This document shows, in pieces, positions 33,001 to 42,000 of a DNA stretch of 64,000 nucleotides. Origin of the DNA: Escherichia coli O127:H6 str. E2348/69. Lineage in GTDB: Bacteria > Pseudomonadota > Gammaproteobacteria > Enterobacterales > Enterobacteriaceae. A program made the position numbers. How positions within the stretch are numbered: the first letter of the stretch is position 1; every line of letters starts with the position of its first letter. The DNA lies in assembly GCF_000026545.1 (NCBI RefSeq), contig NC_011601.1; one strand, given 5' to 3'.

Positions 33001-36000
33001 AGTGTAAGGTTGCTGGCAATTTCTGAGAACAAGCGAATAGGGCATTATTCCGGAGCAGGACAGGGTAATCACGCAGGTGGTGATACTGGATGCGGATAAA
33101 AAGCCGATACAGTGCGTGGTGAGGCCGCTGCAAATTCGGTGTGCTGATGGGACGAGGGAAAAATTTGTGGATGACATTTGTTGTGGACCTTTAAGTCTGG
33201 AGTTCAAATTAAAACAGGGAGCTTTATTATGCCATTAACCTCAGATATTAATTCATCTTCGTTCCATCTTGGAATGGAATTTGTAAAAAAACGCCACAGG
33301 CATCAGGAATATAAGAAGGTGTCTGTGGTTGACAGGTTTCAGATGACTTGAGGGCGTCTTTATGTAACTGAATTTTTCTGTGGAGATGCTGTCTGAAAAT
33401 ATTTGATTAAAAACGGAAGCTAAGTTAAATAGTAAGTTTATTTTTTGAGCTTAGGTGTATGTGTTTAGAATTTTTCTGGTGTGTTTGTTTTGTGGGGGAT
33501 TTTAGGAAAAAAATATTAATCCTTATTAATAATAGCCGTCATCCATTTCAGCTATTATTTTAAAATAAACAAGTTAAAGCTTAGACTCTTGTTTCTTGGA
33601 TTATATCAACGGTATCAACATAATTTGATGGGTTATGATGTGGTGAGTTATTGCTTTCGATATTGATGACCACATCCTCTGGATTTGGATGCCGTTGTCC
33701 AACAGATACACCTTCTTCCATTGCGCGTATATCAGCCCCTGTGGCATGTTCAATATCTGCTTTATTTGGGAAAATGGCACCTTCTCTTGCATGCCACCAT
33801 ATACGAGGATAGTCAGTGAATCTGGCCTCTCCAAACTCGGCCTTGTTTAAATCAGCCAGTCCAAGAGTAGTACCTGCCCACCATAAAATAGTGTCTGGCT
33901 TTAATCCGGGGGTATTATACTGTATGGCATGCCCCGCTGCTTGCCCAACCATTGCACCGATATGAGGACTTAACATTGGATCTGTACCAGTAAATCTGGA
34001 TACTGCAAATCCCCCTACAGCACCAAGCGCATTTGCGGCAGCATTGGTAAGAACGGCATATTTAGTATTAGGGTTATCTAAATCCCACTTGAAATGTGCG
34101 CCAAACTCCAGCCCTAGAGTTGCCTGTAGTGGAGATGCACCATATTTAAAATCTGCTTCTCCCGGTCTGATCACCCACTCTTCAGTATAATTTGCTTTGG
34201 GGCCATCAGGAGTAAGAGGAGTTTCTCCAACAAGCTTCCATCCATTTTCAGTTTTGACTATAGGAAGTTCCACACCATGATTACGAACTACTTGAGCTGT
34301 TAATCCAAACCATGGTATTGGGTCTTTTGACGCGGTGGTTACCGTCGAAGTAGTGGCTGATGCAATAGTGGATGCAGCAGTCGATACAGTGGTTGGTATA
34401 TTGCTGTTGCTTAATGCATTTTTTAATGGACCAGGAAGGTCTTTAAAATTAATACCTATTTCATCATGCAAAGGGAATATCTGTAAAAAATAATTACCTG
34501 ATGTAGGATGAATATCTGGTTTTACAATGTTTAGCTGGACACCATATTTACCAGAGATACCCGGAACGGTGCTGGGTATTTCTAATGCCATCTGAGAGAC
34601 ATTGAATAAACCAAACATATCCAATGCTTTTTTTCCTGCAGAGCCTTCTTCAAGATGAGGTGCAAGATATTTATCCAGCCCAGAGAGCAGACCTTCATCT
34701 TTTATCAAGCTCAGTAGAGCTGTTGTTTCACCGCATTCCGGTGCATGTCGCTGCATATCCTCTGGGATATGAACAACAAATCCCGTTTCGCATCCATTAG
34801 GTAATTCGGATTGCGGTATTTGTGTAGGGGACGTTTGTTCTGCGTGATGATGTCGATTGTTTTGTGTGGTGATTCCGGATGTTACGATCGGTTGAATGTT
34901 CATGATAAATCCTTATTGCATGTTTATATCCATTAATAATATCAATCCATTGATATTATTAGTGTCACATATCCGATGTGGACAGCTTTATATATAGCTG
35001 TTTGAATGCTTGATTGATGTGACTTAGATCTCAAAATTAAGTTGTTAAATTTACCAGTTTATCGCTTGAACACTTAAAATAAATTATAAATCCTTCTGTT
35101 ATTGTTTTTATAATTCAAATTATTGTTGGTTGTATAACTTGATTACATTTTTACTCTAAGTGTTATAAATATTTTATACTGATATTAGTTTTATTATATA
35201 TATTCTTAATGAAAATGAGCATAAAACTAAGACATATAATGCTTGGCAGCTTTATGCTCTTCTGATTGGCTGTATGTTTGATGACAAAAAATTAGCGCAA
35301 GAAGAAAAAATCACCTTGCGCTAATGCTCTGTCTCAGGTCACTAATCACACCTAACTCATTGATTAATTGTGACTCTAAATGTAGTGTTTTGTCGCGTTT
35401 TGCAGTATGTTATTTAATCTATTATATGAATAACATAATGATTTTTAATGTATTTTTGTAATTTACTCTCCTTCTGACATGGAAGTTGTTCGTTCAAAAT
35501 CTTATTAAATATCAAGTTGTTAAATCTGGTAAGTCATTATTGGTCAAAATAAAATCATTATCCGATTTCAATTTTGTCCCACTCCCGCTCGCGACTGTCC
35601 CTATAATGCGCCGCCATTGAATCAGATTTATGTCCAAGAAGACGTTGTGCAAACTTGTAGCCAATCTGGTTCCGATATAGCCTCGCGGACAGACTACGTA
35701 GTTCATGAAATGTCGGTGGGTCTCCATCAAACGAGATCCCGGATGCATTTCGCGCCTTTGTTAAATACCGTGATACTGTGGCTGGAGAAAGTGGTTCGTG
35801 ATAGGTTGATGCGATTATTGTTTCACTGCTGCTGGCCTCCCTGCATTTCTGTAGTGTATCAACCAGTGAGATGTCGAGTGCGTCAATGGTTAGAGCCAGC
35901 GGAATGGCAATTTTGGCTCCTGTTTTACTCTGTCCAATGTGAAGATGACCATCGTTTATGTCTGACCACTTCATTCTGCACAAATCGCCCACTCTCTGCC

Positions 36001-39000: not shown

Positions 39001-42000
39001 ATGCTCTGAAACAGGTCACTAATATCATCTAAATAGTTGACTCATAGTGACAGCATGTGTTGTGTCTTGCAGTATTATATAGTCTATTATTTAGATTGAA
39101 GCCATCATAATCTATTGATGTTAATGGTTTTTATTGTTTGTTGTTCGGCTTTTTATACTAATTTGAGCGAAACAAAAAGATAAAAAGTTGTTTTTCGTGT
39201 CTTTAAGTGATACCAGATGGTATTGCGCTAAATGTACCAATGGGTATACCAAGAGCACTAAAAACAAAGGGGCAACCACTTTGTAACCCCTTGATTATTT
39301 GCAGAAGCGCAGAAAATCGAACTCTGGAACCCTTTCGGGGCATCCTTTTTCAAGAATGAAGAAAAAAATAACTAAAAAATCAAGTTGTTAGGAAGTTATT
39401 CATGGCTAGTGTACCAACTCTTTTCTGGGCTAATAGCTATGATTTGTTTGTATTATTTGTCTCTGTCTCTATTATTTTTGACATCCATGCGACTTCTGAT
39501 ATTGATAATCTCAGTTGTGGAGTTCTGTCTGCGCTTCCGGGAGGACGCATATCAAAACTACTGGATCTTCTGTTAAACACTGTAAAGCCATCTACATTGC
39601 ATGTTGTTGAGTCTAAGATACAATTTTTAGTGTTACGATAATGCTAGGGCGGAAAGTTTCTTCCACTCACTAAAAGTCGAATGCATTTACGGCTAATATT
39701 TTATGAGTCGGGAAATAATGCAGACGGCTGTGTTTAATTAGATCTAGTGTGATTACAATCGGTGGTGCCGACACAGTACTTGTGGCTGTCTCAGCACGGA
39801 ACTGTTTTGAAAAACAGAACCTTGATTAGGGCTGTGTCCACATTACGTAGGTAGGATCACCCCACAGGCACCACATGTCATGCATGGATTAGGATTGAAT
39901 GATAAATCGTAAAGAAAACTGCAACACCTCGCGTGTAGCACCTGGTTAGCGAACTTTCGAAAGTACGAGTATTGTATGATTTCCAGCAGTTATCAATTTT
40001 ACGTATTAATCAGTGAATCAACAACTCGTCAGCAGACTCTCTTTGTTGTGGAATTTTTTGGAACGTGTATAGGGTAGAAATTTTTGTTTTGGGACATGGT
40101 TGGGACGCCGTAGTACATACGAACTCTGCCGAATAACGTATGATATTATTTTTTAATCTCTTGGAATACATTATAGAAACAGAATGCTCTTGGGCGATTT
40201 TTAGTGATTGTTTAAATAGCCCTGTCATGCAGTTAAAGTGGCGGGCATCCTCTTCAAGGATGGTGATCCTCAACCGCACCCATTTAGGATGCGACTATTG
40301 TGGTAGAACAATGTAAACCATAGTTAATCTGCGTGCGGATACATGCTTCATAGATAGGATATTCTGGTTTGGGTTGTGAATGTGTTGGTCATCGAGTGGA
40401 CAATAAGGTAAGAGGAGTAACTCCTGCAAAACAAAAAAAGAGTTCAACAAAATCAATCAGTTAAAAACACGAGAGATCTGTATAAAAAAGCATCGTAAAT
40501 TCTGTATTTTTCCTTTAAATATAATATGTTATTGAGTTTTGTAAAATCTACCGGTCTGGTACATGGATATCGATACCGAAGTGAAATATAAATCCAACGG
40601 CGCAGTGCTGCCTGCAGGGCGTTATTCTGACAACGTACGCCTTGACCCGTGGGTATTTATGTTCTCTGCGGGTTACCGCTTCTAATTTTTTACCATCAAT
40701 AAATATCCTCCGGCATAGCCGGAGGTTTTTCAAATGCGCCTATAAGGCTCTCTTACCAGCCGCGCCCTAACAGGCGCACACGATCTGACATTTGCATCCA
40801 ACTTCGTTACTTACGGCCCGTAAACGGGCTGCCCGGATAGGGAATCGATAACTGCTCTCCCATTTTATCCTCTTCAAGCTGGTGCTTTATGTAATCCTGT
40901 ATCTTCGCCGTGTTCTTACCCACCGTATCGACGTAATACCCTCTGCACCAGAACTCCCTGTTCCTGTACTTGAATTTCAAATCACCAAACTGCTCGTAAA
41001 GCATCAGACTGCTTTTCCCTTTCAGATATCCCATAAAGCCGGATACGCTCATTTTGGGCGGGATCTCCACAAGCATATGGATATGATCTGCACAGCATTC
41101 AGCTTCCAGAATCCGTACACTTTTCCACTCACACAGCTTTCTCAAAATACAGCCTATTGCTCTACGCTTCTCTCTGTAGAACACCTGTCTTCGGTATTTT
41201 GGCGCAAATACTATGTGATATTTACAGTTCCATCGGGTGTGCGCTAAGCTCTTTTCGTTCCCCATTGGGACCCCCTTTTGATTTCTTGTTTGACACTTGC
41301 AGTTGCCAGACCGCAAGGTGTTTTAACAAATCAAAAGGGGTTTTAATAACTGGCTCAAAGCTGAAAGCTTTCCGGAACCCCCAGCCTAGCTCTGTCTCTT
41401 ATACACAAATCCCCACCCGGGGATTTGTGATGTCTGTCAGTCTGCTTTAGGGGGACTCTTTCCATCCGGTAGTTTCCTTCCTCCCCGGCAGCGATTTTTT
41501 GAACTTTTTCCTCACCTGTTGATCTTCTCTTATATTTCATTTTCTTCGGGTCTGTTATGGTACTTTCTGATTGTTATTCATGGGCTAACGAGCAGTTTGG
41601 ACATGCCCGTCTCGGTGATCCGCGTCGTACACGACGCCTTGTGTCACTGGCCTCTTCTCTCGCTCAGCATGCAGGTCTTTCTATTGTGAAATCATCCCAG
41701 TCCACTGCTCAGGTTGAAGGTGCGTACCGCCTGATACGTAACCCGTCTGTGTCCCCGCAAGCCATTGCCGAAGCCGGATTTACCGCCACTGTAAGGGCAT
41801 GTGAGGCTCATCCGCTGCTCCTCGCGCTGGAAGACACCACCACCATTAACTTCAGTCACAGTACGGCATCTGATGACCTGGGGAATACCACCACTAACCC
41901 GAAGACGCGCGGGCTGCTGGCTCACTCTGTCCTGATGTACGCCCCCGACAGCGCCCTGCCAGTCGGTCTTATCGAACAGCAGCGCTGGAGTCGTGCCACG

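Follow-up and report, generated by a model that had tools for sequence, protein, structure and literature searches.

Two related DNA segments, X and Y, lie on either side of an integrase pseudogene (int') and the effector genes nleH and nleF in a 64,000-nucleotide stretch of the chromosome of enteropathogenic Escherichia coli O127:H6 str. E2348/69 (contig NC_011601.1). This whole stretch is referred to as the window, and all positions are coordinates in it. X and Y are in all likelihood relic sib-attachment (sib-att) segments of two different lambda-like phages, which mark the ends of two stacked cassettes in the effector locus of the prophage in ompW. X appears to be an attP, in unrecombined form, from a lambdoid phage that carried nleA and targeted yfaT; the decayed int of that phage is beside it. 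Y appears to be a lambda-type attR (P-O-B') which was moved from att-lambda into the ompW prophage.

The gene order at the right end of the prophage was taken from the RefSeq annotation of E2348/69. This order, including a 3' fragment of ompW, shows that the prophage is integrated in ompW. The excisionase and integrase genes that belong to it, both intact, adjoin the intact copy of ompW, about 11-12 kb before the start of the window and outside it. X, int', nleH-nleF and Y are all internal to the right-hand 'exchangeable effector locus' of this lambdoid prophage. Prophages in ompW, that of E2348/69 included, were analysed by Nakamura et al. 2021 (PMC8112680).

Results

Segment X and the integrase pseudogene

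Megablast against phage genomes was carried out with X and int' together, and 83-84% identity over 1.28 kb was obtained to HK022, mEp235 and phage Gally. The HK022 entry (GenBank X51962) is annotated with a 'sib transcription processing site' at 190-239, an 'attP site' at 243-469 and int. When lambda, HK022, X and Y were aligned together, X showed the sib hairpin, the P1 site CAGGTCACTAAT, the remaining P arm and the P' block GTCATTATTGGTCAAAATAAAATCATTAT, which runs into the int stop codon. The arm layout of lambda-family att sites (P1/P2 and P'1-3) is kept around the core, and the site adjoins int. As X holds the P arm, the core and the P' arm, it is a complete P-O-P' site. Its core region differs from those of lambda and of HK022; X carries a third core type, TGACATGGAAG, with yfaT as its target. 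The original prediction had placed the hairpin immediately downstream of the 3' end of int. The hairpin is indeed downstream on the int strand, but about 230 bp of attP intervenes.

The target of the X core was read from strain 95NR1, in which a prophage resides in yfaT, a DUF1175 gene. At the attL of this prophage, yfaT...CAACTTATGACATGGAAGTTGT leads into the P' arm, after which come an intact int (85% nucleotide identity) and xis; X has TGACATGGAAGTTG, the P' arm and int in common with it. The attR end consists of nleA, AT-rich DNA, sib and the P arm up to ...CTCCTTCTGACATGGAAG, and then yfaT' sequence. It is 97.9% identical to 33484-35485 of the window, and the homology stops exactly at G35485. 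Both att ends of the 95NR1 prophage break homology at TGACATGGAAG, and the X core is thus a real crossover point. The extent of the match and the exact break at the core point to X as the attP of an nleA-carrying lambdoid phage that targeted yfaT.

A 5'-truncated, stop-interrupted lambda-like int had been predicted next to X, and both tblastn with HK022 Int and the RefSeq annotation agree with this. int' matches residues 26-355 of HK022 Int with 81% amino acid identity, and lambda Int with 66%. Codons 1-25 are gone, a frameshift is present near 36475-36490 (about residue 48), and an in-frame TAG occupies 36362-36364 (residue 89). RefSeq labels it a tyrosine recombinase that is frameshifted, has an internal stop and is missing its N-terminus. 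On the 5' side of int', xis and the early region have been replaced by a tail-fibre fragment. int' being a pseudogene, X has no working cognate integrase beside it. The order cargo, sib, attP, int is the vegetative one and lies away from the prophage ends, as was foreseen; the int and xis of the ompW prophage itself are elsewhere. The same in-frame stop was present in every retrieved X-type copy for which int was fully recovered, while one locus (L087) ends at a contig edge. In 445 E. coli genomes X is found along with int' and the tail-fibre junction (at least 80% query coverage), and the listed examples are 98.6-100% identical.

Segment Y

Y tracks the lambda attR of a K-12 lysogen along its full length (81% over 286 nt), and is 81.9% identical to the attR of prophage CP-933K. 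Its parts follow in the order sib, P1, P arm, a GC-TTTTTATACTAA core, TTTGAGCGAAAC, an 8-nt deletion, and AAAAAGATAAAAAGTTGTTTTT...CTTTAAGTGATACCAGATGGTATTGCGC up to 39228. The chromosomal counterpart of the flank directly adjoins ybhB-bioA. With the empty attB region of MG1655, the window has a match solely at 39150-39228 (82.8%), from the core rightwards, and the ybhC side of that region has no match anywhere in the 64 kb. The alignment with lambda attR and this one-sided attB match indicate that Y is an attR of lambda specificity with about 65 bp of host DNA, the P arm being joined at the core to ybhB/bioA DNA. The P-O-B' junction was also seen, at the true att-lambda, in most of the 112 viral contigs described below.

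Compared with the att sites of lambda, Y is not situated between ybhC and ybhB; it lies off att-lambda inside the ompW prophage, 1.3 kb from the prophage end. It has also undergone a 1-nt deletion in the core and the 8-nt deletion in the flank. The missing T falls at the boundary of the core-binding site and the overlap region. The original prediction had given Y as 38956-39120, of which the start is correct, but the segment runs on to about 39228. The flank is of the Escherichia type, and Citrobacter flanks fit worse. The best E. coli matches to it are about 78-83% identical, and the divergence of Y from the chromosome is in the same range as that of the published chromosome-derived att pieces of this locus.

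Y is carried by 607 E. coli genomes, at 99% identity or more in 538 of them, and is always joined to a remnant of an insertion sequence (IS) of the IS256 family; this junction is kept in all copies of the Y lineage. The segment is intact in 248 genomes and cut at 39197 in the listed O157:H7 genomes. In EDL933 (locus L119, ~6596-8908) the break is due to ISEc8, which splits the host flank of Y. None of the 607 genomes has Y split at the core. In the listed O157:H7 genomes, nleG, espM1 and another gene of the nleG family (DUF1076) are situated between the espO and IS3 remnants; they are deleted in E2348/69.

Organization of the locus into cassettes

Three copies of the tail-fibre gene's 3' end are found, at 32196-32403, 33041-33199 and 36546-36685, which are 89-94% identical and each of which precedes a different cargo. 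Copies 1 and 3 also keep the terminator AAAACCGGAGTCCGGCTCCGGTTTTT. Copy 3 (repeat families D1 and D5) shows 94% and 92% identity to 32265-32403. It is probably at these copies that homologous recombination joined the effector cassettes. int' breaks off at codon 26, at its junction with the tail-fibre fragment (36546), so that int' and nleH-nleF come from different cassettes.

The native order in related phages was used for comparison. In phage cdtI the tail-fibre 3' end stands directly before nleH, and in phage 2B8 the vegetative order is effectors, sib-attP, int. In prophage CP-933K of EDL933, which occupies att-lambda, the terminal order is a tfa (tail fiber assembly) fragment, nleH1-1, an IS256 remnant, nleD, sib-P-O-B' and ybhB. 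Its nleH1-1 region is 85% identical to 36654-37648 of the window, and CP-933K would be the in-place analogue of the third cassette. The tail-fibre repeats before each cargo and the native phage order indicate that the locus is built of cassettes stacked one after another, each made up of a tail-fibre 3' end, cargo, sib and att in that order.

Cassette 2 would comprise tail-fibre copy 2, nleA, X and int', and represent the cargo/att/int stretch of a yfaT-targeting phage in unrecombined form. Cassette 3 (tail-fibre copy 3, nleH1-2, nleF, the IS256 remnant and Y) would be the right end of a phage of lambda specificity that was once integrated at att-lambda and, on leaving it, took along the attR junction (P-O-B') together with ~65 bp of DNA from the ybhB side. 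Excision of the lambda-bio type retains the cargo, sib, P arm, core, B' and bio-side host DNA. Y keeps all of these, and its architecture is that expected of an imprecise excision of this kind; unlike lambda-bio transducing genomes, it would have taken along only the ~65 bp of host DNA, with no bio genes. The event itself is proposed from this architecture. What is observed directly is what each part is and exactly where the breakpoints lie. The cassettes may have been joined by illegitimate and homologous recombination among lambdoid genomes; both this and the sequence in which the events took place are proposed. Since X, int' and Y are widely shared at high identity, the arrangement is a shared, horizontally spread structure in which the pseudogenes are included. 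The features are listed in Table 1.

Table 1. Features of the prophage right end in the window.
Feature	Position	Strand	Remarks
J	26496-29969		RefSeq; lom and tail-fibre genes follow, the last ending at 32336
nleA	33581-34903	minus	Cargo of cassette 2; RefSeq; AT-rich upstream DNA at 34904-35280
X	35281-35560		sib/tI and attP
X sib/tI	35281-35334	minus	Hairpin arms 35291-35301 / 35315-35325; U-run 35285-35291; extended lower stem
X attP (P-O-P')	35335-35560		P arm from P1 site CAGGTCACTAAT (35335) to ~35467; core TGACATGGAAG at 35475-35485; P' arm to ~35560
int pseudogene (int')	35558-36552	minus	HK022-like, cognate to X; tblastn and RefSeq
Tail-fibre 3' copy 3 and terminator	36546-36685	plus	Start of cassette 3, breakpoint with int'; RefSeq: 72-nt C-terminal fragment 36546-36617
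nleH1-2	36724-37635	plus	Cargo of cassette 3; RefSeq
nleF	37701-38270	plus	Cargo of cassette 3; RefSeq
IS256-family transposase remnant	38317-38951	minus	RefSeq; abuts Y
espO remnant and IS3 remnant	After the IS256 remnant (38317-38951) in window order		RefSeq
Y	38956-39228		sib, P arm, lambda core and host flank
Y sib hairpin, decayed	38956-39011	minus	Arms 38966-38976 / 38992-39002; T38971 opposite G38997
Y P arm and core	39012-39161		P1 at 39012; lambda-type core GCTTTTTATACTAA at 39148-39161, one T fewer than lambda
Y B' flank	39162-39228		~65 bp of host DNA, ybhB/bioA side of att-lambda, 8-nt deletion
ompW 3' fragment	40545-40685		RefSeq; IS elements, then the trp operon beyond

The sib hairpins

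On the minus strand, X folds into an 11-bp-stem hairpin followed by U6 (-28.6 kcal/mol, z = -6.5). The fold has a 12-pair upper stem and a lower stem of 5-7 pairs, like those of lambda and HK022; the lambda and HK022 sib sequences gave -24.3 and -28.0 kcal/mol, respectively. An 11-bp-stem hairpin with a T-run that reads as a terminator on the int strand had been noted in X, and both the stem and the minus-strand U6 are present. The predicted likeness to the lambda tI/sib region turned out to be stronger than proposed: X is a homologue, aligning with the annotated sib of HK022 and with lambda, and Y is homologous to both as well. In X the near-identical ATTAGCGCAAG ... CTTGCGCTAAT is followed by U6, at the same position beyond attP and with the same fold, lower stem included. 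Hairpin, U-run and lower stem are all present in X, and partly intact in Y.

The minus strand of Y contains a C-A mismatch (T38971/G38997) and folds with -18.3 kcal/mol (z = -2.35). In the plus-strand RNA a G-U pair is formed at these positions, but the hairpin is followed by GCUCUG instead of a U-run. The C-to-T change that had been noted in Y with its pairing kept is therefore real, at T38971, but it is one-sided and not compensatory, as the G-U pair exists only on the plus strand and the int-sense strand has C-A.

Conservation of the hairpin was surveyed in 112 viral contigs, retrieved by a P1 arm-site pattern which excludes the hairpin. The hairpin was present in 112/112, so that its absence from homologous regions downstream of int, which would have counted against the original prediction, was not encountered. 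The 114 copies (the 112 contigs, X and Y) represent 55 distinct sequences. Their stem arms are invariant bar three exceptions, namely the Y lineage (10 copies including Y) and two singletons, and in each of these the change is one-sided and breaks a pair. RNAalifold on 27 distinct sib sequences gave 19 pairs, of which 0/19 were compensatory, and the change in Y was scored as a broken C-A pair. Covariation thus failed to appear, and the idea of a compensatory hairpin change was rejected on this count and on account of the C-A mismatch on the terminator strand.

In lambda, sib is located beyond attP; transcripts from pL pass tI and form an RNase III substrate, leading to decay of int mRNA, and in the prophage state sib is separated from int (PMC5300877). 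Neither X nor Y has an intact int upstream, int' being truncated, frameshifted and stop-interrupted and Y being without an adjacent int. Unlike in lambda and HK022, the int to be regulated is dead and the upstream context of xis, pL and N is gone; the sib circuit is hence without a target here. The hairpin of Y, with its mismatch, is weakened and has nothing obvious to regulate. X and Y are functionally relics.

Other host-derived fragments near Y

Within the effector locus, chromosome-derived attB sequences of yecE (21 bp), ykgJ/ecpE (96 bp) and ompW (121 bp) have been described, with 81-87% identity to the chromosome, and phages were shown to integrate into these attB-in-prophage sites (PMC8112680). 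In the window, the ykgJ/ecpE-like site (site 2 of Nakamura et al.) is at 39864-40038 (71% over 203 nt), the yecE-like site (site 1) at 40226-40322 (90.7% over 97 nt) and the ompW att region (site 3) at 40545-40689.

Right after the flank of Y, 39228-39365 consists of about 80 nt like the phage-side arm of serT prophages, followed by the 3' half of a tRNA-Ser (79% overall). The anticodon loop (TTTTCAAGA) is the exact point at which the serT-like homology stops, as it would at an attP-type site of an integrase that targets tRNA genes. No integrase adjoins this piece, and ARAGORN did not call the serT-like fragment at 39228-39365. After the tRNA-Ser half, AAAATCAAGTTGTTAG (39375-39390) matches AATATCAAGTTGTTAA in the P' arm of X (35507-35522) at 15/16 positions; both fit the consensus WATCAANNNNTTR of integration host factor (IHF), and the match is of marginal significance (E = 0.009).

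Five host-locus fragments (att-lambda B', serT, ykgJ/ecpE, yecE and ompW) are thus found within about 1.5 kb. The main text of PMC8112680 contains no mention of bioA, ybhB, ybhC, sib or serT, and in view of this Y and the serT-like half-tRNA appear to be additional layers of the same phenomenon. Like the published sites, Y belongs to the effector locus of the ompW prophage, shows similar divergence and consists of host att-flanking DNA in a phage genome. Unlike them, Y is not a whole attB: it is an attR half-site in which a phage P arm forms the left side, and no phage was found in it.

Neighbouring features

In E2348/69, IS200C and ISEc13 are present between the ompW fragment and trpA (40800-43000), where EDL933 has yciE-yciF-yciG. 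This suggests that the chromosomal genes next to the prophage end were lost by an IS-associated deletion at 40800-43000. In the N-terminal tail-fibre gene, collagen-like repeats with a 9-nt period (GGNCCNCAGGGNCCGAARGGAGA) extend over 31574-31821. Between tail-fibre 3' copies 1 and 2, an open reading frame of 180 amino acids is found at 32557-33099 (+), for which RefSeq gives only short partial 'hypothetical' fragments. Three small open reading frames (32557-33099, 39402-39641, and 39437-39634 on the minus strand) had no match in NCBIfam. A scan of 32000-41000 against Rfam with E values up to 1 matched no family. At 2730-2970, ARAGORN called three adjacent tRNAs with the anticodons CAU, UUU and UCU. 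The middle call (tRNA-Lys, 2807-2882) is without RefSeq annotation, where tRNA-Ile and tRNA-Arg alone are given.

Discussion

That X and Y resemble each other is established by blastn (76% over 142 nt, E = 1.4e-25) and by a global alignment score of 68 against -33 +/- 7 in 500 shuffles, as the original prediction had anticipated. It had further proposed that the two are decayed att-type sites of a captured module, and a single int-nleH-nleF module inserted in the prophage would then have X and Y as its attL and attR direct repeats. The repeats do enclose int', nleH and nleF, both are genuine att-region DNA, and phages are documented to integrate into the effector loci of prophages. In an attL/attR pair the core alone would be common to both sites, and the arms would be opposite ones. 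What X and Y have in common is sib and the P arm, oriented alike, and they diverge at the core (TGACATGGAAG, of the yfaT type, in X; GCTTTTTATACTAA, of the lambda type, in Y); in place of one core with complementary arms there are two cores and the same arm twice. From the differing cores and the common arm it follows that they are not the two ends of one module. X, holding both P and P', is an attP; the cores TGACATGGAAG and TTTTTATACTAA correspond to different targets, yfaT and att-lambda. int' is truncated against the tail-fibre fragment and not contiguous with nleH-nleF, and in 95NR1 it is the nleA side of X that travels with X, not the nleH side. The att-type nature of the DNA therefore stands, and its reading as the ends of one module is highly improbable. 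Tandem lysogeny by Int-mediated attP x attR recombination, with X as a hybrid P1-O-P'2 site, was considered and rejected, the cores being different and the P arm, core and cargo of X fitting one yfaT phage type.

The hairpins might instead be retained as working RNA elements, terminators or RNase III sites controlling nleA or nleH-nleF, the change in Y being tolerated with its pairing preserved. The fold of X is as strong as those of the sib sites of lambda and HK022, and X is upstream of nleA on the nleA strand, and the contexts of X and Y are at least 99% conserved in hundreds of genomes. Such identity across genomes, however, reflects the recent horizontal spread of the whole locus, pseudogenes included. 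Against a maintained function, the minus strand of Y has lost about 10 kcal/mol with the C-A mismatch, no U-run is read after its hairpin on the plus strand, all three variant types break a pair with 0/19 pairs compensatory, and no Rfam family was matched. This explanation is unlikely. Somewhat less probable still is that Y acts as a live secondary site ('attB-in-prophage') for phages of lambda specificity, comparable to the sites derived from yecE, ykgJ/ecpE and ompW. Its lambda-type core and chromosome-derived B' (about 82%) fall in the divergence range of the published sites and lie within 1.5 kb of them. A complete B-O-B' is not present, though; only the core and B' are chromosomal, the left half is the P arm and not a B side, and ybhC-side DNA is nowhere in the window. 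One T is missing at the core-binding/overlap boundary, and across the 607 genomes Y is never occupied by a phage or split at the core, the sole interruption being ISEc8 at 39197.

Several points weigh against the preferred reading of X and Y as relic ends of two stacked cassettes. The sequence is compatible with more than one way of joining the cassettes. Y could just as well have arisen as the attR of a phage of the lambda type that entered an attB captured earlier inside the prophage, with the attL deleted later, a type of route described by Nakamura et al. (PMC8112680). A search for the donor of the B' flank in 100,044 species genomes returned only Citrobacter and K-12-like Escherichia, none closer than ~81-83%. 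A consensus terminator scan flagged neither hairpin; its loop limit is 8 nt, and both loops are longer, so that the scan does not bear on them. X may at most still end minus-strand transcripts at 35285-35291, some 380 nt upstream of where nleA starts; no other residual role is plausible, and this one is a prediction only.

Boyd et al. 2012 noted that effector genes follow the tail-fibre genes, next to att, and suggested on this basis that they were acquired when phages excised imprecisely (PMC3530523). In Y, a direct trace in the sequence agrees with an excision of this kind. The elements themselves are ordinary, mostly dead and of textbook kinds (sib, attP and attR) in a well-studied locus. 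They add little for mechanism, and their modest value is in the history of how the effector-gene cluster was assembled. A bolder view, for which the chances are slim, is that the prophage right end preserves at least five captured host att loci in layers, as an archive, in which the attP of X and the half-site of Y might still be landing pads for yfaT- and lambda-type phages; if true, further routes would exist for the prophage-in-prophage stacking of effector genes. Apart from this view, Y and the serT-like piece bring two more chromosome-derived att fragments to the three already described in this locus. The breakpoints point to an nleA cassette from a yfaT-targeting phage in its excised form, and to an nleH-nleF cassette from a phage leaving att-lambda with host DNA. 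They are thereby evidence, taken directly from sequence, in favour of the imprecise-excision and inter-prophage-recombination models that have been proposed for the accumulation of type III effectors in enteropathogenic and enterohaemorrhagic E. coli (EPEC/EHEC).

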